A DNA stretch of 64,000 nt from Dehalococcoidia bacterium (GCA_965216065.1 CBDCFB010000001.1:1554548-1618547); one strand, 5' to 3'. Numbered from the stretch's first letter, positions 1,602-12,579 are shown. Numbers and translations: made by a program. Notes: generated by a model from the sequence alone, not told the origin.

Positions 1602-2804
1602 ATGACCACGCAAACGGCACAAGCAAAGGGTAAGGAGATGAACAAGGCGTTGTTCTACTTCGCGCTTTGTCTAGCTGTTTTTGGCACCATGACCGGGGTA
1701 ATGATGGTCCCGGCGCTCCTTGTGGAGATTGCAAGGGACCTCGATGTTTGGGTTGCGGTGGCAGGGCAGTTGGCCAAGGCAACCTTCGCAGCTTGGGCGG
1801 TCTCCATTGTCGCCGTGGGGCCGCTGGCCGACTCCATCGGGCGCCGGCCACTGGCTCTTGCCGGTGTGTTCCTGGTGGTGGTTTCCCTTCTTGCGTCTGC
1901 TTTCGCACCCAATATAGAAGTGATGATGGCGCTGCGTGTGCTGGCAGGCCTGGGTGGGGGAGCAATTGCGCCCACATCGATCGGGGTGATTTCTGACGTC
2001 ATCTCACATGCCAAACGGGCCCAGGCCATCGGCGGCATTGCCAGCACCATTGTCCTGACCTCGGCAATCAGCATCCCGCTGATGGCCCTGTTCGCGGACT
2101 GGTGGGGCTGGCGTTTCTCCTTTGTCATCGCAGGACTGTTTCTGGCGGCGGCGTGGCTTTTCAACTGGGCTTGGTACCCCAGGGACAGAAAGGAAAATCT
2201 TCGCGGCTTTGTGTTCTTCGCCAGGTATTGGTCCCTGCTTTCCCTGAATTATTTCCGTGTGGCCCTTGTGGTGAATGTCACTCAACGCATGGCTTACTGG
2301 AGTATGCTCAGCTTCTTCGCCGCATATCTGATACAGGCCTACGACGTGAGTGTAGGATTCGTGGCGCTTCCGCTGGTGATTTCCGCATTAGGCCAAGTGG
2401 CGGGGAGCTACACCGCGGGGATCCTGGCAACTAAGAGTTACCGGGTCGCGCTGGTGGCGGCGTCCTCAGCGGTAGGGGGTGTCTGCGGATTCGCGTTATT
2501 TGTTTTCGATTTTGGGCTCTGGCCCGCAGTCGCGATGGCCACGGTGGGTTCGGGCCTGCTGAGCATCACGACTCCTGTGCTGTTGGCCGGCAGCACGGAG
2601 TACTCGGGCGAATCCAAGGCCACCGGCGCCAGCCTGATAGGTTTCAGCAACCAGTCCGGCGGGGTCTTCGGGGCCGGCCTCTCCGGCGTGCTGCTGGCAA
2701 CCGTGGGCTACGACGGGATTGGCTACCTCTGTCTCGCGTTCACCGTCGCCAGTGCAGTGGTGGCCACCGCGTTCGCCCGGCTGCTGCGCGTGGGCACTGG
2801 CTAA
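1602..2804 (+). CDS. MFS transporter (paralog 1)
   Basis: Multiple hydrophobic helices; motif A GPLADSIGRRP; WGWRFSF. Start placed at ATG 1602. Confidence 0.9.
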   Translation: MTTQTAQAKGKEMNKALFYFALCLAVFGTMTGVMMVPALLVEIARDLDVWVAVAGQLAKATFAAWAVSIVAVGPLADSIGRRPLALAGVFLVVVSLLASAFAPNIEVMMALRVLAGLGGGAIAPTSIGVISDVISHAKRAQAIGGIASTIVLTSAISIPLMALFADWWGWRFSFVIAGLFLAAAWLFNWAWYPRDRKENLRGFVFFARYWSLLSLNYFRVALVVNVTQRMAYWSMLSFFAAYLIQAYDVSVGFVALPLVISALGQVAGSYTAGILATKSYRVALVAASSAVGGVCGFALFVFDFGLWPAVAMATVGSGLLSITTPVLLAGSTEYSGESKATGASLIGFSNQSGGVFGAGLSGVLLATVGYDGIGYLCLAFTVASAVVATAFARLLRVGTG

Positions 2805-2860
2805 AGGCTTCGGGCCTGTAGATTTACGGATAGAACCTTGCCGGAACAGGTATCGATCAA

Positions 2861-4063
2861 GTGAGCACACAATCGGAGCAGTCAGAGGGCAAAGAGGTAA
2901 ACAAGGCCTGGTTCTACTTCGTGCTCTCCCTGGCCATTCTCAGCACTCAAACGGCCATCGTGATGGTTCCGGCGCTCCTCGTCGAGATTGCAACGGACCT
3001 CGATGTTTCAGTGGCGGTCTCGGGGCAATTGAACACGGCGTCATTCGCGGCATTGGCGATTTCCATAGTCGCCGTGGGGCCGCTGGCCGATTCCTTCGGC
3101 CGTCGTCCGGTGGCCCTCGCCGGAGTGCTGATGGTCCTGGTCTCAGTGCTGGGGTCGGCTTTCGCGCCGAATATGGAAGTATTCCTCGCCCTCCGAGTGC
3201 TGGGTGGCCTGGGAGGAGGGACCATACCGCCGACGTCGGTGGGGGTGGTGTCCGACATCATCTCCCCGGCCAGGAGAGCCCAGGCCGTCGGCGGCATTAT
3301 GGGAACAGTCGTGTTGACCTCTGCCATCACCGTCCCGCTGGTGGCCCTCTTCGCGGACCTGTGGGGCTGGCGGTTCACCTTCGTGCTGGCGAGTTTGCTG
3401 CTGGCGGCGGCGTTTATTTTGAGCTGGATCTGGTATCCCAGGGACAGCAGGGAGCGGGTTCGCGACCTGGTGTTCTTTGCCAGGTATTGGTCCCTGCTTT
3501 CCATGAGTTTTTTCCGGGTCGCCGTGGCGGTCATTGTGAATCAGCGCCTGGCCTACTGGGGCCTGATCAGCTTCTTCGCCGCCTATTTGATACAGGCCTA
3601 CGATTTGAGCGTGGGGTTCGTGGCCCTGCCCCTGTTGATTGCTGCAGCAGCACAGGTGATAGGAAGCTACGCCGCCGGATTCGTGGCCGCCAAGAGTTAT
3701 CGCGTCTGGCTCATGGGCATTACCACAGCCATCGGGGGAGTCTGCGTGTTCCTCTTCTTCGCGGTCGATTTCGGGCTCTGGACTGCGGTGGCCCTGGCTA
3801 CGTTGGGATCAGGCTTGTTGAGCGTCCTGGCCCCAGTGATGGTCGCCGCCACCACGGAGTATTCGGGAGATTCCAAGGCTACGGGAGCCAGCACTATAGG
3901 TGTCGGCAACTTCGTGGGCGGGATGCTGGGGGCCGGACTCTCCGGCGCCCTTCTGGCTGGCGTGGGCTACGAGGGAATTGGCTACCTGTGTCTTGCCCTC
4001 ACCACGGGCGCCGCGCTGCTAATAGCCGTGTTCGGCAGGCAGTTGCGGGTGAACGCCGGCTGA
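2861..4063 (+). CDS. MFS transporter (paralog 2, tandem duplicate)
   Basis: GPLADSFGRRP; colinear with and highly similar to 1602..2804. Confidence 0.9.
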   Translation: MSTQSEQSEGKEVNKAWFYFVLSLAILSTQTAIVMVPALLVEIATDLDVSVAVSGQLNTASFAALAISIVAVGPLADSFGRRPVALAGVLMVLVSVLGSAFAPNMEVFLALRVLGGLGGGTIPPTSVGVVSDIISPARRAQAVGGIMGTVVLTSAITVPLVALFADLWGWRFTFVLASLLLAAAFILSWIWYPRDSRERVRDLVFFARYWSLLSMSFFRVAVAVIVNQRLAYWGLISFFAAYLIQAYDLSVGFVALPLLIAAAAQVIGSYAAGFVAAKSYRVWLMGITTAIGGVCVFLFFAVDFGLWTAVALATLGSGLLSVLAPVMVAATTEYSGDSKATGASTIGVGNFVGGMLGAGLSGALLAGVGYEGIGYLCLALTTGAALLIAVFGRQLRVNAG

Positions 4064-4399: not shown

Positions 4400-5185
4400 T
4401 CACGCGCTGGCGAAAATCTCGTTGGCAACGTCCATCGCGCCCCGGGCAAAAGGTATGCCAGCGTAGAGCGTCATGTGGCCGAACACTTCGATGATCTGGT
4501 CCTGCGTGAATCCAATATTCAACGCGCCCCGGATGTGGCTCCGCAGGGGCCCCTCGCGGCCCAACGCCGCAAGGCAAGCCATGGTGCAGAGGCAGCGGCT
4601 TGGGAGATCAAGCCCCGGCCGCGTCCAGGTTGCTCCCCAGTAATATTCTCCGGTAGTACGCCCCAACTCCCTCTCAGCCTGGGTGGGCGGAGCCGGCCGC
4701 GCCGCAGAGGTTGTTCCCATGTAGTTCCGCCGGAACTCGTCGCCGCGCTGGAACAGGCTGTCTGGGTCCTCATTGGCATCGTGGATGCGGGCCGGGGTGA
4801 AGTCTATCCCGCGCTCCTCAAAAACCGCTTTGCACAGTGTCAGTGCCTGGATACCCGCTGGCGCTCCGCTGTACCATGTGTCGTGGATGATCAACTCCAC
4901 GATCTGCTCGGGAGTTAATCCCACATTAAGCGCGTTGCTCAAGTGCCGCTTCAGCTGTACCTCGCGGTTCATGACTATGAGACAGGACAGCGTGACCATT
5001 TCTCGCTGCACAGGGGTCAGCGCGGGCCGCTTCCAGATGGTGCCGAATAGCGCCTCACCAAGGATCCTCTCCAGGTCCGGGGCGATGTCCCACGCTCCAG
5101 GGGCTGCCCCCGGCGTGATTTGGCCGCCGCCAAACATCCTCCGCGTTTCTTGCCCTCGTTCGTAGCGATCGTCGAGTTCGCTCAT
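4400..5185 (-). CDS. Carboxymuconolactone decarboxylase family protein, two tandem CMD domains
   Basis: Two repeats of W.RP.L...R...T...L...R...L..H...ALN.G.T..QI.E......Y.G.P; ATG 5185 with AAGGAG RBS. Confidence 0.85.
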   Translation of the reverse strand: MSELDDRYERGQETRRMFGGGQITPGAAPGAWDIAPDLERILGEALFGTIWKRPALTPVQREMVTLSCLIVMNREVQLKRHLSNALNVGLTPEQIVELIIHDTWYSGAPAGIQALTLCKAVFEERGIDFTPARIHDANEDPDSLFQRGDEFRRNYMGTTSAARPAPPTQAERELGRTTGEYYWGATWTRPGLDLPSRCLCTMACLAALGREGPLRSHIRGALNIGFTQDQIIEVFGHMTLYAGIPFARGAMDVANEIFASA

Positions 5186-5544
5186 GCCCGTCTCCTTATA
5201 ATTTGTTCCTGGATTCAAATCTCCGACAGTGTAAGGCGACATCCCAACGGGCACAACGGTTCCTTCCGGCGCCAGCGTGGTTCCCGCAATATTCTCAATT
5301 TCCTGCGGTCGCCCCCTATCGCCAACTCAATGGAGACTCCTTCCCTCCGGGGACAAGGCACGGACGGGTGAGTGAAGAAACCTGGACGAGAATGCTTTCC
5401 ATGCTGAAGCTAACGACGCCTTGATAGGACTGCCAACAGCACTGCTCTTGGCTGACTCAATGCGGATCGTGAGTCCACTATTGAGTCTTGTCCTCCCACG
5501 GCTTGTGGTTGATCGGGCCGGGTAAAGGCTTCCTGCACCCCGGT

Positions 5545-5573
5545 TTGACGACGGCGAGTCGTAGACCTATGCT
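5545..5573 (+). promoter_or_regulatory. Sigma70-type promoter upstream of UGSC gene
   Basis: TTGACG-17 nt-TATGCT, ~105 nt upstream of ATG 5680. Confidence 0.55.
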
Positions 5574-5679
5574 CAGGTCCACCAAGACTTCCCGGGTTGA
5601 CGGTACCGCCGTGGCGGCGCCAACCCGGTACATAAAGCGCCATACAGGTACATAACCTGGTTCTCAGAGGAATTGCGGC

Positions 5680-7410
5680 ATGAAATTGCAGATAATGTCT
5701 CCTGCGGCCGACCGGGTGGACTTCAAGGTACCTCCCGCCCCCAGGCTTACCACCCTGGAAGGCAAGACAATCGGTCTGTACAACAACATGACCGGCGGGG
5801 CCGACGTTGCCGTCGACCGGTTCGCAGAGCAGCTGCAGCGCCGGTATCCCAGCGTCAGGTTCCAGCGTTACGGCGGAGACCTTCGCGAAGGCCGCCCTGC
5901 ACTCAGCCGGGGCGTCCACATCGACGACGAGGAAGCCGCGCGCATTGCCACCGAGGTCGACGCCATGGTGGGAGCGACAGCGCATTGAGGGGGCTGCACG
6001 TCGTGGCTTAGCCACGACATGGTCGCCATGGAAAAGGCCGGCATACCCGCCGTGGCCATTGCGGCCCAGAGCTTTGCCCGGTCCTGGCAGGCCTGCGTGG
6101 ACGGGTGGGGACAGCCCACCACCGCTTTTGTCGTCATTCCCCACGCCACCACCGGGCAGCAACCCGACTTCATCCGCAACATGGTGGACGGGCAGATTGA
6201 CGCCATAATCCAGGGCCTCACCACCTTCCCGGCATCCCGCGGGCCGGTCACCTCCAGGAAGACCAGGAAGACCGGCGGCGCCACCGAGATCTTCACAGTG
6301 GAGATGGACTCATCTCCGGATGGGCTGGACGCGGTGAACCGGTTCTTGGCCGATCGGGACTGGAGCGACGGCATTCCGGTCATTCCACCCACTCCCGAGC
6401 TGGTGGAGAGGATGCTGGTCGGCACCAACAGGAGCCCGCAGGACGTGCTGATGGTGATGGAGCCGGGCTTTGGAGTCGCCACGGTTGAGAAGGTCGCGAT
6501 CAACGCCGTGATGGCCGGCTGCCGACCCGAGCAGTTCCCGGTCCTGCTGGCCGCCATTGACTGCCTGGCCCAGCCGGAGCTGAATCACCGGGATATGCAG
6601 GTGTCGGGCCACACCGAGGCCCCGCTGATCCTGGTCAACGGCCCCATCGCCCAGCGTGCAGGAATCAACTGCGGGACGTCGGCCATGGGTCCCGGCGTGG
6701 TCAACAGCGCCAACACCTCCATCGGACGGGCGCTGCGACTGTGCCTCATCAACATCGGCTACTGCAAGGCCGGGACCGGCGACCCCAACTTCATCGGCCT
6801 GCCCACCAAGTTCGGCATGTGCATTGCCGAGAACGAAGAGCTCAGCCCGTGGCAGCCCTACCACGTCGACCAGGGTTTCCAGCCCCACGAAAGCGCCGTA
6901 ACGCTGGTGACGGTTACCGGCCCCGGCGACATCCTGGACTCGGGTTCAAGGAACCACAAAGACACGCTGAACAACATCGCGTCGATGATGTCCTACCCCG
7001 GCGCCGGCAGCGGCGGGTGGATAAGGGGCTGGGATTCGGCGCAGGTGGGGCATACCAGCCAGCGGGTGTCCTATCCCGGGCCTTACCATCCCGTCGTGCT
7101 CAGTCCATCCCGCGCAGTCATTCTGGCCGAAGCCGGGTACAGCAAGCGCGACGCCCAGGAATGGCTGCACGAACACTGCCGGATGCCGTTGCAGAAGGCC
7201 ATCCGAAACCGCGACGTACCTAGGGACGAGAACGGCAAATGGCTGCATCATCCCGAACAGCAAACACTGGAGAACGACCCGGAAGCCACCATTCCGATGC
7301 TGGAAAGCCCGGAGCAGTACCTGCTGTTCGTGACCGGCGGCACCACCCACTACGCCCACTTCTTCTACGGCACCTACGGCATCGCCACCCGCCCGGTGGA
7401 AGAGATTTAG
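5680..7410 (+). CDS. UGSC-family selenoprotein (Sec at TGA 5986-5988), fused to C-terminal DG(L/I)PVIPPT domain
   Basis: ORFs 5680..5988 and 6019..7410 are in the same frame; the junction reads VGATAH-TGA-GGCTSWLSHDMVAMEKAGIP (UxxC); hairpin follows the UGA. Confidence 0.85.
5997..6021 (+). promoter_or_regulatory. Candidate bacterial SECIS element
   Basis: Perfect stem GTCGTGGC-TTA-GCCACGAC (6000-6018) starting 11 nt after the in-frame TGA; extendable by CA/TG. Confidence 0.6.
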
Positions 7411-7527
7411 CCACTGGTGGGGGTCTGTTGATTCTCCCTCCCCCCTTGAGGGGAAGGCCCTTCGGCAGGCTCAGGAGGGACGGGGCGAATTCCTGAGTTT
7501 CAACGACCTTTCAACCAACGAGGGACG

Positions 7528-7560
7528 CCCTCACCCTAACCCTCTCCCCAAGGGAGAGGG
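7528..7560. repeat. CCCTCACCCTAACCCTCTCCC-N-GGGAGAGGG REP-like palindrome
   Basis: Near-identical copy at 10510-10541 and degenerate copy near 13832-13861. Confidence 0.75.
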
Positions 7561-7658
7561 AACAACTGGAAGACCCCGCACCGGCGAGTGCGCATCGGGC
7601 AATGGCTGCGGATTTGCGTTAGAATCTCAGCTACGTTTACTGCGAGGCAGGAGGAATT

Positions 7659-7997
7659 ATGGCATCGATCAGGTTGTATTCCGGCGACGACGGGGAGTCA
7701 CACATCGAAGTTATAGACCCGTCCTCCCATCCGGCTTGGAACGAGTTGCACAACGCCAAGGGAATCGTTTTCAGGGCCCTGCCCCCGGGATTCTTCAGCG
7801 ATTGGCACATCGCTCCCCGCAGGCAGTATCTGATCACCCTCTCGGGGGAGGCGGAGATCGGCCTCGGCGACGGCACCGTCCACAGGCTTGGCCCCGGAGA
7901 CGTAAACCTGGCCGAGGATCTGACAGGCCGCGGGCACACCACGCGCGTTGTGGGTGATGTTCCCAGGATCGTCGCCACCATCCATCTGGACGACTAA
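7659..7997 (+). CDS. Cupin domain protein
   Basis: DWHIAPRRQY...LSGE.EIG..DG...GPGD..LAEDLTGRGH cupin signature; AGGAGG RBS. Confidence 0.85.
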   Translation: MASIRLYSGDDGESHIEVIDPSSHPAWNELHNAKGIVFRALPPGFFSDWHIAPRRQYLITLSGEAEIGLGDGTVHRLGPGDVNLAEDLTGRGHTTRVVGDVPRIVATIHLDD

Positions 7998-8181
7998 ACA
8001 AATACCAAGGTGGGATGTGCCTTTCAGGGTCTTGAAGACGAGCGAAAAGACTCCACTGCTCCTCATCTGTCCTTTGGGCACCAAATGGGTCGCCACGACA
8101 GGGTGGTCTGCATAAGACCGCCCTTGGCCGCCAGGGCGGATTGTGCCTTGTCCGGCAACCATCAAGCTTAATTTTTGGCCT

Positions 8182-8296
8182 CTGGATTCCCGTCCCTGAT
8201 CAAGTCCGGGATGATGTTCTTTCGCGGGAATGAAAGGGATTCTTCCGGCCCTGCCGGCCCGATTCTTGTGTCGAAAATCAAGACGCGATTGCCCTG
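8182..8296. repeat. Composite REP-like palindrome plus solo ISAs1-like end
   Basis: CTGGATTCCCG-TCCCTGATCAAGTCCGGGATGA-..TTTCGCGGGAATGA similar to 54152-54205; TCAAGACGCGATTGCCCTG at 8278-8296 matches the end of the 49041-49311 element. Confidence 0.65.
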
Positions 8297-8398
8297 GCCG
8301 ACAGGGAAACCGCGGATGACAAGAGGACACCGGAAATCTATAATGCGAACAGATACAGTTAATTCGTAAAGCGCAACTCATCGATGAGGAGGCCAAAC

Positions 8399-8836
8399 AT
8401 GGCTACCCAGACCAAATTTGAGCAGGTGACCAAGCCGCTGGTCAACATCACCGAGATGGACCACATCGTATTGCGGTCTCGGGACGTGGAAGAGTCGCTG
8501 CGTTTCTACACCGAGGTTCTGGGGCTGAAGGCGGAACGCGTGGAGCAATGGCGGGCAGGCGAGGTGCGCTTCCCCTCGGCGCGACTGAACGCCGACACCA
8601 TCATCGACTTCTTCGCCTCCGAGAACATGCCGGAGGACAAGGACGGGCCCCGCAACCAGGACCACTACTGCATGGTCATCGACCACACGGACATGGAAGA
8701 GCTGAAGGCCCACTTCGAGGGCATCGGCGTGGAGATCCAAGCCGGGCCTGGCAAGCGCTGGGGCTCCCACGGCGACGGCATTTCCCTCTACATCTACGAT
8801 CCGGACGACAACGTGGTGGAACTGCGCCACTACTAG
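8399..8836 (+). CDS. VOC/glyoxalase family protein
   Basis: MDHIVL..RDVEESLRFY..VLGL; SLYIYDPDDNVVEL. Confidence 0.9.
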   Translation: MATQTKFEQVTKPLVNITEMDHIVLRSRDVEESLRFYTEVLGLKAERVEQWRAGEVRFPSARLNADTIIDFFASENMPEDKDGPRNQDHYCMVIDHTDMEELKAHFEGIGVEIQAGPGKRWGSHGDGISLYIYDPDDNVVELRHY

Positions 8837-8916: not shown

Positions 8917-10461
8917 CTATCCGGTCTGCTGGATGATCCAGTCGGCCACACGTTCACCGATCATGATGGTGGTGAGATTGGTGTTGGCCCGGATGACGTC
9001 GGGCATCACGGACGCATCGGCAACTCGCAGGTTCTCGATCCCGTGAACGCGGCCGTACTGGTCGACGACCGCCATGGGATCGCCGGAGGGGCCCATCTTG
9101 CAGGTTCCAGAGAGATGCTGCCCGATGTCCACGGTCTCGAGCATCCACTCGTCCAGCGTGTCGTCCGACTTGATCTCCTCAGCGGTGGGAGAAATGGCCT
9201 CCTCGACGATGTCGCTGAAGGACTCGTGCTCCATGAACTGGAAGGACATCCGAATGGCCTCCCGCATTCGCTGGCGGTCGACCTCCTCTTCGAGATGGCG
9301 GCAGTTGATATCCGGATTGTCCCCAGGGGTGGTAGAGCGCAGCTTAATTTCGCCGGAGCTCTTGGCCAGCTCCAGGATGCAGGTAAAGCGGATGCCCTCT
9401 TCGGCAAATGGGTCGCCTCCCAAAGGAGTGGAGAAAGACGACGGCAGAATCTGCATGTCGTTGCGCAGGTCGGAGCCGGATGCCGTGTAGCGGAGCACCG
9501 TCTGGATGCGCGGGGCCTCGGCGTCCAGAGGGAAGCCGGGCTTGGTCTTGACCCGCACTGCGCAGAGGGGATGATCGCGCAGGTTCTGGCCCACACCGGG
9601 GAGATCCTTGACCACTGGCACGCCCATCTCCTGCAAGTGTCCAGCCGGCCCGACGCCCGACAGCATCAGTATTTGCGGAGAAGCCACCGCCCCGGCGCTG
9701 AGAACAATCTGGTCGCTCTCGACGGTGAACGTCTCACCCCCGCTCTCCACCTCGACGCCGCAGGCCCTGACGCCGTCGAACAGGATGCGGCGCACCAGCA
9801 CGTTGCCGCGGATGGTGAAGTTGAGCCGGTGCCGGTTGTCGGTAATGTAAGTCAGGGCCGTACTCATCCGCACGCCGTTCGGGTTGTTCATGGGAAGCGG
9901 CCCGACGCCTGTCGAATCCGGGTGATTGTGGTCGTAGACTTCGGTGTAGCCCCCGGCGATGGAGGAGACGTGGAACGCCTCCTGGAGAGGCAGCCAGGCC
10001 TCGCGCTTGTGGCGGCGGACGGGGACCGGTCCGCTGTTGCCGTGGAAGTCGTCTACGATGTCGGTGTCGGTCTCTAGCTTGCGGAAGTAGGGCAGGCACT
10101 TCACGAATGACCACTCGTCGTTGCCCCATTCGGCCCAGCTGTCGTAGTCCTCGGGCACTCCGCGAAGGAAAACCTGGCCGTTGATGGCGCTGGTGCCGCC
10201 CACCACCCTGCCGCGGGGGACGACGACGTCCTCAGAGCGGACAGCGCTGCCCTTGCCGGTAAACGACCAGTTGTGGGGACCTCCCATCTCGGAAGCCCTT
10301 GGAGCGTAGCCAAACTTGAGGTCGTCGGGGGTCTGCTCGAGATCGACGTAGTCCGGCCCCGCTTCCAGCAGCAACACCGACCGGTTCGGGTCTTCGGCCA
10401 AGCGGCTGGCAAGTGCACCGCCACCGGAACCTGCGCCAATGACGATTACATCGTATTTCAT
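8917..10461 (-). CDS. GMC family oxidoreductase (choline dehydrogenase/MftG-like)
   Basis: GAGSGG FAD motif, GRVVGGTSAING, H-LSGTCKMG, LRVADASVMP..ANTN. Confidence 0.92.
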   Translation of the reverse strand: MKYDVIVIGAGSGGGALASRLAEDPNRSVLLLEAGPDYVDLEQTPDDLKFGYAPRASEMGGPHNWSFTGKGSAVRSEDVVVPRGRVVGGTSAINGQVFLRGVPEDYDSWAEWGNDEWSFVKCLPYFRKLETDTDIVDDFHGNSGPVPVRRHKREAWLPLQEAFHVSSIAGGYTEVYDHNHPDSTGVGPLPMNNPNGVRMSTALTYITDNRHRLNFTIRGNVLVRRILFDGVRACGVEVESGGETFTVESDQIVLSAGAVASPQILMLSGVGPAGHLQEMGVPVVKDLPGVGQNLRDHPLCAVRVKTKPGFPLDAEAPRIQTVLRYTASGSDLRNDMQILPSSFSTPLGGDPFAEEGIRFTCILELAKSSGEIKLRSTTPGDNPDINCRHLEEEVDRQRMREAIRMSFQFMEHESFSDIVEEAISPTAEEIKSDDTLDEWMLETVDIGQHLSGTCKMGPSGDPMAVVDQYGRVHGIENLRVADASVMPDVIRANTNLTTIMIGERVADWIIQQTG

Positions 10462-10509
10462 CCTTCGTGGCCTCCGTTTCCTAATAACTCTATATGTTCA
10501 AGGGATACT

Positions 10510-10541
10510 CCCTCACCCTAACCCTCTCCCGGAGGGAGAGG
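10510..10541. repeat. CCCTCACCC REP-like palindrome
   Basis: CCCTCACCCTAACCCTCTCCCGGAGGGAGAGG; sister of 7528-7560. Confidence 0.75.
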
Positions 10542-10590
10542 AGATTGCCCGGTCCTTCCCCCCAGAGAGGGAGTTGTCGGGGCGAATGGG

Positions 10591-12579
10591 CTAGTCGGCT
10601 ACGGGCTGCGCTTCGGCCAGTGTCCCTGCCATGGCGGCATAGTGCTCGGCGGCCTGCGCGACCAGGGGCGGGAGATCCTCCTCCAGCAGGTAGCCGTCAG
10701 CGACGAGTTGGCGGGCGTTGGCCTCGATGTGATCCAGAAAGGCCTGGCGGGACTCGTATCGCTCCTCGATGGAAGGGCGAGGGTCGCCGGAGGACTCACG
10801 TTCGGCGCGAGTGGCGGCAAAGGGGATGGAGGAGCCGCGCAAAGTGCCCCCCGAGGCGCCGCCGGTGGACAGCGTCTGCCCTTCGCCTCCGATGTCGGCG
10901 TGCCGACGGTTCCAGCCCAGGTGCGATGCCAGGGGCACCGAGACCAGGGGCAGCCGGATCCCCGCCACCTCGTTTCCGTCGGCGTCCACCTGTGACACGA
11001 GGCAGGGAAATTCTCGGCCCACGGTCGCTGGGACCACGGAAGGAACCCCGGGGTCGGGGCCGAAGTCCAGGCGGGTGAACTTCCGCACCGGGCTGGGGAG
11101 CCTCACGCCAGGTACCGCCTCCAGTCCGGGGGCTACCGCAGCGGGTGAGACGGCCGTGCCGTCTGCGATCCTCGGATACTGGCTGGGCGGTGCTGCCTCT
11201 CCGTAGGAAACCCACCGGTCCAGGTTCACCAGGGCCGCCCGCAACAGCGCCCGGTAGTCCAGGCAGTTGAAGGTGTGGGCTCCCCGGTAGCCATCGACCG
11301 GATCGGTGTCGGCGAGGGGAAGGCCACCGAGGGCATGCTGGGTGCCCGCGAAGGCGTACACGCGGACGGCATCGGGAGGCTCGAGATCGTGGGTGCCCTC
11401 AATGTCGGTGTGCACAAGCGCGCCGTGGCCCGCCCAGTACTCGGACGAGGTGTAGGTATTCATCACCTTGGGCAATTCACCCTGGGAAGCCAGCCGGGAC
11501 AGCAACCCGTCCGTCAGGCCGGTGTCAGGGTCGGTCTGCGGGGAGTCGGCAAAGGGGAAAAGGCTGTTGACGCTGCGGGTGGCCTGGCTGGAGGGCTGGG
11601 CGAAGCGCTGGTTGAACTCACCCCGCTTGCCGCCGGCCACATGGGGCATCAAGCCGTCGAAGACGGCACGCCCGGACTCGTCGTAGTTGAGGCCGTGGTA
11701 AAGGAAGGACCGCAGGAACCGGCCGCTCTGGGAGACGCCAAAGGCATAGGCGTGTTCGAGACCACCCTCGGCCTCGAAGCGCAGGTGGGAGGCAATATCG
11801 CGGGTGGCCACGAGTCCAAGCCCGGCCACGGGCGCGCCGGTGGTCGTGTAGATGACCTGGTACACCTTGCCCGGCTGGAATCCGCCCTCCAGATGGACAT
11901 GGCAGGGATCGGGAATCAGGCGGCCGTCCTCCAGTCTCGCGAACCACCACTGCTTCCGGGGTATGACGTGCTCACGGGCGTCCTCGTCGTCCTGGACGGT
12001 CATCACCGACTCCCAGTCCTCCAGCTTGTTGGCCGGATAGGCGCGGTGCAACCGGTCGGAAACGTACTGGACATCGGTCGGCGAGTTGGGCTGGAAGGTG
12101 ACCACGACCCTTCCGGAGACTGGCTTGCCGTCTTCCAGCGCTTCGGGAACCTGGATGCGCAACAGGCCGGGCGTGTCTGGAACGTCGTGCTGCCAGCCGC
12201 ACCATGCGACGGTATAGCCCTGGCGCATCAGGAACCCGTTGCCGGGGTCAAGGGGCGCGTCGGGCGCGACATCGGGCGCGCTGTTGATGTTGCGGAGGGC
12301 CAGCGCCTTACCACGATTCAGGACGTCCAGCAGCAGGCGCCCGTTGCCTTTCGAAGGGTCGTCGGGGCGCAGGATGCGGAAGTCGGACGAGAATTCCACC
12401 AGCCCCTGCCCGTTGCGGGGTGCCAGCGTGATGTCGGCGACGGTCTCGTTGGCCGGGTGCAACGGGTCCACGGCGAAATGGGCCGTACCCTCCACCTGGG
12501 TATAGGTACCGACCGTGCCGAAGGACTGCCCGTCGGCAAAAGGCTTCTGCGAAGTAATTTCGAGCCTGGTTACCGGCAT
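10591..12579 (-). CDS. Alpha/beta hydrolase domain protein (tannase-like/Abhydrolase_10 type)
   Basis: GVSQSGRFLR nucleophile motif, GWQHD, SSEYW, D.DGNE..GIRLP, DPRPSIEERY. Confidence 0.8.
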   Translation of the reverse strand: MPVTRLEITSQKPFADGQSFGTVGTYTQVEGTAHFAVDPLHPANETVADITLAPRNGQGLVEFSSDFRILRPDDPSKGNGRLLLDVLNRGKALALRNINSAPDVAPDAPLDPGNGFLMRQGYTVAWCGWQHDVPDTPGLLRIQVPEALEDGKPVSGRVVVTFQPNSPTDVQYVSDRLHRAYPANKLEDWESVMTVQDDEDAREHVIPRKQWWFARLEDGRLIPDPCHVHLEGGFQPGKVYQVIYTTTGAPVAGLGLVATRDIASHLRFEAEGGLEHAYAFGVSQSGRFLRSFLYHGLNYDESGRAVFDGLMPHVAGGKRGEFNQRFAQPSSQATRSVNSLFPFADSPQTDPDTGLTDGLLSRLASQGELPKVMNTYTSSEYWAGHGALVHTDIEGTHDLEPPDAVRVYAFAGTQHALGGLPLADTDPVDGYRGAHTFNCLDYRALLRAALVNLDRWVSYGEAAPPSQYPRIADGTAVSPAAVAPGLEAVPGVRLPSPVRKFTRLDFGPDPGVPSVVPATVGREFPCLVSQVDADGNEVAGIRLPLVSVPLASHLGWNRRHADIGGEGQTLSTGGASGGTLRGSSIPFAATRAERESSGDPRPSIEERYESRQAFLDHIEANARQLVADGYLLEEDLPPLVAQAAEHYAAMAGTLAEAQPVAD

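Follow-up and report, generated by a model that had tools for sequence, protein, structure and literature searches.

Gene organization and reading frame

The 64,000-nucleotide stretch of DNA analysed here (the window; Dehalococcoidia bacterium, GCA_965216065.1, CBDCFB010000001.1:1554548-1618547) carries on its plus strand, at positions 5680–7410, what is very probably a single gene for a 576-residue selenoprotein. In this reading of the sequence, which best explains the locus overall, an in-frame UGA would be decoded as selenocysteine (Sec, U) at residue 103 by means of a hairpin downstream together with SelA, SelB, SelD and tRNA-Sec, and a UGSC domain is fused to a C-terminal domain of the type called Unknown_1. 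The frame begins with the ATG at 5680 and is open to an in-frame TGA at 5986–5988, followed by GGG GGC TGC at 5989–5997, all read directly. With TGA translated as U the gene is complete, running for 576 codons including Sec103 to a TAG stop at 7408–7410, and U103 is the sole non-standard step. The TGA and the three codons after it (5986–5997) specify a U-G-G-C redox motif, placed at the start of helix 104–119 in an AlphaFold2 model. A conventional list of open reading frames (ORFs) splits the gene into 5680–5988 (102 aa) and 6019–7410 (463 aa); a preliminary description of the window had joined these two ORFs in one frame through TGA-GGG-GGC-TGC, with an 8-bp stem 11 nt further on, and its coordinates are exact.

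Substitution patterns were compared with 14 orthologs, with synonymous and non-synonymous counts placed by tblastn coordinates. Differences in codons 1–102 are mostly synonymous (for example 22:6, 35:6 and 43:23 synonymous to non-synonymous), and those in codons 104–190 are mainly synonymous too in the 10 nearest orthologs, but divide about equally between the two classes in the four remotest ones (L032, L043, L044 and L045).

The N-terminal domain (residues 5–181, 5692–6222) matches the Pfam UGSC profile PF24696 at 107.3 bits against a cut-off of 25, over profile positions 2–171 of 172 and spanning U103. It also matches the NCBIfam equivalog model NF041046 (UGSC family (seleno)protein) at 84.1 bits (E 9.4e-24, residues 27–180). 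The preliminary description had taken the product for a 576-aa member of the UGSC family with a U-G-G-C variant and proposed alignment with family profiles; the Pfam match across the TGA bears this out, and the curated cut-off of NF041046, 125 bits, is missed, so that equivalog status is not claimed. Judged by these profile scores, the fused subfamily is a diverged relative. In a Pfam scan of the read-through protein (E up to 0.1) PF24696 was the only match, with none to Trx, Grx or Prx.

The genome to which the window belongs (3.9 Mb in 2 contigs, 90.6% complete) contains selA (536 bits), selB (340 bits), selD (381 bits) and a tRNA-Sec (66 bits), each above its curated cut-off, and ARAGORN reports the last as tRNA-SeC with anticodon TCA; Sec decoding in this organism, which the preliminary description had supposed, is thereby supported. 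The selD gene (L010, G000:C2:657046-657966, minus strand) itself carries one in-frame TGA, and its product is probably a Sec-containing selenophosphate synthetase.

Both the family and the fusion have been described before. Zhang and Gladyshev (2008, PLoS Genet; PMC2398784) report a 'UGSC-containing protein' as a major selenoprotein family in GOS and describe a 'UGSC/Unknown_1 fusion'; for the UGSC protein they propose a thiol-redox role and expect a thioredoxin (Trx)-like fold. A 2026 review lists the family as uncharacterised (PMC13188914), and the passages on the family in a 2007 paper and a 2022 review assign it no function. The protein encoded here resembles the UGSC family (PF24696, NF041046) in its domain match across the Sec codon, its UxxC motif and its alternation of Sec with Cys, and differs from it in having U-G-G-C rather than U-G-S-C, a UUA hairpin loop rather than the common GUG or GUA, and a score below the NF041046 cut-off. 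The gene is very probably that of a real selenoprotein; it belongs to a known family and a known fusion and is not a new kind of system.

Selenocysteine and cysteine at the UGA column

Database entries for the relatives of this protein are shortened at the TGA. The best 120 matches in a large protein database are all about 460 aa long (441 to 475) with query coverages of 68 to 80%, and thus lack what the query encodes ahead of the TGA; in the closest cluster the entries that carry a name are 460 aa long and labelled 'hypothetical protein [Chloroflexota bacterium]', and the plain translation-table-11 ORF found only unnamed clusters in the ESM Atlas. An exhaustive representative search returned 4,926 relatives at E up to 0.001, and by hand count 47 of the 150 matches listed begin at their own residue 1–7 opposite query residues 108–126, just past Sec. 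UGSC is an abundant aquatic selenoprotein family, and this gene shows how systematically it is mis-annotated.

Six-frame searches recover the whole gene. Full-length matches with exactly one TGA are present in 15 of 34 other genomes of the genus, and also, at 36–49% identity, in other families of the order. The TGA falls at the identical column in all 22 related loci that were extracted. Members of the genus and G045 have the motif U-G-G-C, four fused forms at a greater distance have U-G-T-C, and two unfused forms have U-G-S-C. UGSC matches occur in 35 of 301 genomes sampled from the phylum, a tally that takes in two unpublished genomes (G096 and G285), and among the matches listed that span the Sec column all but two have one TGA. 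One of these exceptions is a fused Cys form, C-S-T-C, from a genome that also holds a U-S-T-C paralog; the other reads T-R-S-G. The pattern extends to 71 UGSC domains obtained from 76 loci of named genome records (Dehalococcoidia, several classes of Proteobacteria, Actinomycetota, a Bacillota isolate, Methylomirabilota/Rokubacteria, Acidobacteriota, Binatia and the haloarchaeon Natrialba asiatica), among which 66 have TGA and five TGC at this column.

Where TGA is absent the column is mostly occupied by Cys. Among 28 aligned full-length fused homologs without TGA, 21 have Cys there (mostly as C-G-S-C, and once as C-G-G-C), as do 30 of 43 non-Sec ORFs that cover the column. Both the Sec/Cys column and that of C106 are invariant in 19 aligned UGSC domains (alignment A6, in which Sec is written as C).

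Three individual loci can be added. The ortholog in G007 (G007:C1:2089151-2090798, minus strand) is split into two matches, covering residues 1–404 and 420–575, a split that a frameshift or faulty assembly could explain. Locus L054, from a different genome of the phylum, contains two fused paralogs about 2.4 kb apart, at 6036–7622(+) and 1989–3608(+); one has U-G-S-C and the other T-R-S-G with no Cys, and from its motif the latter has lost the redox centre. The Natrialba asiatica record (L161) holds a Cys-form UGSC domain (C-G-S-C) adjoining the partner domain, so the system crosses the boundary between bacteria and archaea.

A hairpin downstream of the UGA

A hairpin of the selenocysteine insertion sequence (SECIS) type is located at 6000–6018. 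Its two arms, GTCGTGGC (6000-6007) and GCCACGAC (6011-6018), are perfect reverse complements that form an 8-bp stem around a TTA loop (UUA in the RNA, 6008–6010), and the spacing from TGA to stem is exactly 11 nt (5989–5999). Bacterial SECIS elements of the E. coli fdhF type are hairpins within the coding sequence downstream of the UGA. The element here is similarly intragenic, beginning 11 nt past the UGA, and most loops in the UGSC family start with G-U; it departs from the fdhF type in that the loop in this gene and its genus is UUA (CUUAG if the top pair opens), with no leading G.

The support for the hairpin comes from sequence comparison and not from folding energy. In 21 aligned sequences (17 distinct) the 8-bp helix is paired in 94.9% of cells, a value reached by none of 500 shuffles, and pairing falls to 15–54% when the partner is shifted by 1–3 columns. 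Individual pairs vary: pair 18–30 occurs as G-C (11), G-U (5) and A-U (1), and pair 22–26 as C-G (8), A-U (4) and G-U (1), with four sequences unpaired. The stem is encoded by Thr-Ser-Trp and His-Asp codons in such a way that third codon positions pair with third, which makes the series TCG/CAC to TCG/CAT to TCA/CAT synonymous in both arms.

Across phyla, at least 7 of the 8 pairs are present in register in 53 of 66 Sec forms (35 with all 8) compared with one of five Cys forms, a comparison in which the Cys forms are few and the related sequences are not independent of one another. The His is replaced in four of the five Cys forms, and part of the conservation of 'S-W..H-D' may well reflect a constraint on the RNA, as these data suggest. 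The general minimum free energy of the 39 nt after the codon gives no separation (means of -12.3 kcal/mol for Sec and -12.2 kcal/mol for Cys forms), so the two groups are distinguished only by the register-specific pair count. Loop triplets among the 53 well-paired Sec forms include GTG (21), GTA (13) and TTA (2). All six UGSC paralogs of the genome have a TGA with a stem at the equivalent place. A scan of the whole window with Rfam at gathering thresholds returned a single tRNA and no match at the hairpin.

Domain structure

The whole chain was modelled with AlphaFold2 from 136 sequences, giving a predicted local distance difference test score (pLDDT) of 93.2 and a predicted TM-score (pTM) of 0.94, values that fit two domains packed in a defined way. 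In the model, residues 24–187 make up a regular beta-alpha-beta domain in which U103 lies between strand 95–101 and helix 104–119. Foldseek finds flavodoxin-like reductases as the best matches to the UGSC domain (E about 1e-4), and VIA-align gives Z scores of 8–11 for residues 24–187 against Rossmann-like, CheY-like and flavodoxin-like chains; the UGSC domain thus models as a Rossmann/flavodoxin-like alpha/beta fold. No thioredoxin-fold entry is among the listed structural matches for residues 24–187, which does not exclude a family that goes unlisted. The Trx-fold UxxC selenoproteins (the Trx-like and Prx-like families of the GOS selenoproteome, PMC2398784 Table 2) also have UxxC at the N-terminus of a helix, and thiol/selenol redox chemistry is presumed for them as for the present protein; they differ from it in that its predicted topology is the regular strand–helix alternation of Rossmann-like folds, and its listed structural matches are Rossmann/flavodoxin-like.

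An interdomain linker (residues 182–203, 6223–6288), modelled with lower confidence (pLDDT 77 for residues 181–190 and 68 for 191–200), leads into the C-terminal domain (residues 204–576, 6289–7407). This was recognised as Unknown_1 from the alignment in Fig. S1A of PMC2398784, whose block A-[VI]-N-[AG]-V-M-A-G-C-[RK]-P-E is present here; the rows of that figure (AVNGVMAGCRPEYMPIL...) match residues 273–290 (AINAVMAGCRPEQFPVLL), compared by eye. Within the block, Cys281 (6520–6522, in A-V-M-A-G-C-R-P-E) is the Cys highlighted in Fig. S1A and is Cys in 123 of 135 homologs. The DG(L/I)P(V/I)IPPT motif that the preliminary description had attributed to the partner domain is found as D-G-I-P-V-I-P-P-T at D230–T238 (6367–6393), where conservation of D230, G231, P233, P237 and T238 ranges from 123 to 134 of 135 homologs (D230 131, G231 134, P237 132, T238 123). 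A second conserved Cys, Cys381 (6820–6822), stands just before an A-E-N-E motif and is Cys in 98 of 134 homologs, with E384 of that motif kept in 133 of 134. The most conserved residues of the domain are D230, G231, P237, T238, N275, C281, G321, N345, R350, C381, E384, W391, G399 and G553.

The C-terminal domain has no Pfam or NCBIfam match. Modelled alone it reaches a pLDDT of 92.7, and comparison of the model with known structures gives only faint similarities: the best Foldseek match has an E of 4.6e-3 and a probability of 0.38 (class I fumarate hydratases, with cyclic amide hydrolases also appearing), a wide VIA-align search peaks at Z 3.8 with none of 48,161 chains at Z 5, and a sequence search of PDB with the family profile has no match at E up to 1. 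On the basis of the model, the domain has no clear solved structural relative. A reading of it as an Fe-S (iron–sulphur) hydro-lyase is unsupported, with only two conserved Cys.

Relation to GrdB and PrdB and a possible mechanism

The surroundings of the Sec residue resemble those in two selenoprotein reductase subunits, GrdB, which is selenoprotein B of glycine/sarcosine/betaine reductase, and PrdB of D-proline reductase. In each of the 12 GRDB-family loci examined, the Pfam match stops at an in-frame TGA (10 loci) or no more than two codons from it, and after the TGA come P-x-C or G-T-S and a helix. When a UGSC profile (alignment A6, 19 UGSC domains) was compared by hhalign with a profile of 10 read-through GRDB-like proteins (A5), the two aligned with a probability of 93.2% and an E of 2.9e-7 over 75 columns, with Sec on Sec. 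The likeness is local, about 75 columns comprising a strand, U-x-x-C, a helix, E-x-x-G-I-P and a strand, and neither GRDB (PF07355) nor Gly_reductase (PF09338) matches the protein in the Pfam scan; the likeness is thus best taken for common ancestry or a common design of the Sec centre and not for family membership. Both would also be Sec enzymes that need a substrate-binding partner, separate or fused. The partner here is Unknown_1, and the protein has no match to PF09338 that would point to a pyruvoyl proprotein of the GrdE/PrdA type. The same genome contains a GrdB/PrdB-like (PF07355) selenoprotein gene with U-P-L-C (L066:1138-1929, minus strand).

In D-proline reductase, the Sec of PrdB attacks the substrate. 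A plausible scheme by analogy is that the U103/C106 UxxC pair constitutes a selenol/thiol redox centre of the GrdB/PrdB type and works on a substrate bound to the C-terminal domain, through a nucleophilic attack that cleaves a bond reductively or through reduction of Cys281/Cys381; the U103–C106 selenenyl-sulfide left behind would then be re-reduced by a cellular thiol system such as thioredoxin. The position of U103 at a helix N-terminus after a beta strand and the conservation of Cys281 and Cys381 in the partner domain are in keeping with this, as is a Cys-form fused homolog (L053) flanked by a thioredoxin-reductase-like gene and a gene with a glutaredoxin domain. Taken as a whole the scheme is tentative, and we put its likelihood somewhat below even.

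A more specific version, which we regard as unlikely, is that the fused protein is a single-chain relative of the two-subunit GrdB/PrdB reductases, with a substrate-domain fold not seen in PDB, and cleaves a carbon–heteroatom bond reductively. Were this the case, the expansion to six systems per genome in this Chloroflexota (Dehalococcoidia-related) genus would mark a selenium-dependent toolkit for degrading several organic compounds.

Alternative readings

Several observations weigh against the readings given above. Sec insertion and activity are predictions from sequence, the score against NF041046 is below its curated threshold, and the genes around the locus differ between relatives. For DNA this rich in G+C, the 61-nt stretch that holds the hairpin has an unremarkable folding energy (z = -1.12, with 31 of 200 shuffles folding at least as well); its UUA loop lacks the G-U start of most family members, and the hairpin comparison rests on only five Cys forms. 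Seven of the 28 full-length fused homologs without TGA have a residue other than Cys at the Sec column, and so does the T-R-S-G form noted among the phylum matches, from which it follows that some members of the family function, or are at least retained, with no redox centre. In alignment A2 the absence of the Sec-column Cys and that of Cys281 are not coupled. As to GrdB and PrdB, the protein lacks Pfam matches to both GRDB and Gly_reductase, and PF09338 was not found in the genome, although the control genomes are silent too and the assembly is incomplete.

The proposal that Sec acts on the substrate competes with one in which the UGSC domain is a mere electron carrier, comparable to a tethered thioredoxin, which feeds a catalytic Cys281/Cys381 pair and does not touch the substrate. 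UxxC is a redox motif of a general type, two Cys are conserved in the partner domain, and the seven members that persist without a Cys at the Sec column are what would be expected if the UGSC domain were an accessory module; the thiol-redox role proposed in PMC2398784 is also compatible with it. The closest profile match, however, is to the Sec centre of GrdB/PrdB (in D-proline reductase, Sec is the attacking group), the model is Rossmann/flavodoxin-like with no thioredoxin-fold entry among the listed matches, and Cys281 and the Sec-column Cys are not lost in step. We consider electron transfer a credible role for the domain, and lean against it.

In another reading the TGA would be an ordinary stop, with a 102-aa product followed by a separately initiated product of 463 aa. 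There is an ATG at 6019, and gene callers annotate the orthologs in this way (as the 460-aa 'hypothetical protein'). Direct inspection of the sequence ahead of this ATG reveals no motif comparable to the Shine-Dalgarno-like GAGG at 5667–5670, 9 nt 5' of the ATG at 5680, and termination at the TGA would cut one Pfam domain in two. The two-gene arrangement is further disfavoured by Cys in non-TGA homologs at the conserved TGA column, by the presence of the hairpin and of the Sec machinery, and by purifying selection in one frame on both sides of the TGA; we judge it very improbable. The outcomes that the preliminary description had named as fatal to a selenoprotein, homologs consistently encoded as two genes with no Cys at this column or a genome lacking Sec machinery, are both absent, since fused single-gene Cys homologs exist and the machinery is present. 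Its expectations for the alternation of Sec and Cys (TGA in all 22 loci, and Cys in 21 of the 28 fused non-TGA homologs) and for a SECIS element, conserved here with compensatory changes, were likewise borne out.

A pseudogene with a nonsense mutation, or a TGA that is an assembly error, has nothing specific in its favour beyond the one split ortholog in G007, and can be dismissed with near certainty given that all 22 related loci and 66 of the 71 domains from many phyla carry the same TGA and that substitutions are mostly synonymous. Reassignment of TGA to a standard amino acid throughout the genome deserves equally little credence in view of a dedicated tRNA-Sec with selA, selB and selD, of other frames that TGA ends (the orthologs in L025 and L044), and of a run of further TGAs past the stop of a nearby ORF of the major facilitator superfamily (MFS). 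Sec insertion at U103 in a single fused gene accordingly stays the best account of 5680–7410.

Paralogous systems and gene neighbourhood

The protein joins in one chain two partners that otherwise have adjacent genes of their own. Of the 71 UGSC domains from elsewhere, at least 36 are likewise fused, sharing one open frame with a domain bearing DGxPxxxP[TAS], and no thioredoxin was found fused to the partner domain among the proteins scanned. Five more Unknown_1 genes (about 350 aa) are present in the genome, each no more than about 3 kb from a stand-alone UGSC gene whose in-frame TGA forms part of U-G-S-C or, in one instance, U-G-G-C. These pairs are located at L061:6137-6646(+) with 9539-10606(+), L062:6894-7403(-) with 7496-8563(-), L063:6260-6769(-) with about 7057-7842(-), L064:6680-7735(+) with 7865-8335(+), and L065:6945-7445(-) with about 7815-8495(-). 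Together with the fused gene they make six systems in a 3.9-Mb genome, and genomes of the genus have 6–14 matches each. The presence of six paralogous systems suggests that the family has diversified over several substrates.

What is added here to the known family is the Rossmann/flavodoxin-like model, the alignment of the Sec centre to that of GrdB/PrdB, a C-terminal domain without a solved relative, and the six systems in this genome. The single-chain form holds both partners together and is convenient for study; its confident model, the GrdB/PrdB-like Sec centre and natural Cys variants such as C-G-G-C offer handles for expression and for a substrate search.

No conserved operon partner was found, and only a loose and inconsistent recurrence of MFS transporters, glyoxalase, GMC oxidoreductase, Abhydrolase_10, gamma-glutamyltranspeptidase, PNPOx and CMD/AhpD-like genes is seen around the family. 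The selenoprotein gene stands alone, with a divergent gene upstream (4400–5254, minus strand) that contains two CMD/AhpD-like domains, and with genes on both strands downstream. A CMD gene also adjoins one of the unfused UGSC/Unknown_1 pairs (L063:8600-9688). Further upstream in the window are tandem MFS transporter ORFs at 1518–2804 and 2861–4063 (both plus strand). Beyond the TGA that ends the second of these, the frame runs into three further TGAs in about 100 codons and encodes nothing recognisable, and this TGA therefore looks like a true stop; no search for other Sec sites in the MFS genes was made.

No terminator-like site was found in the non-coding stretch 3' of the selenoprotein gene. 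That stretch contains a 14-nt inverted repeat (7426–7439 and 7551–7564, 79% complementary, 111 nt apart). On the other side of the gene, the 425-bp gap that separates it from the divergent upstream gene includes a weak sigma-70-like promoter match, TTGACG-17-TATGCT, at 5545–5573 (plus strand), which agrees with the consensus at 9 of 12 positions and is a consensus match only, being one site where 0.5 are expected in shuffles.

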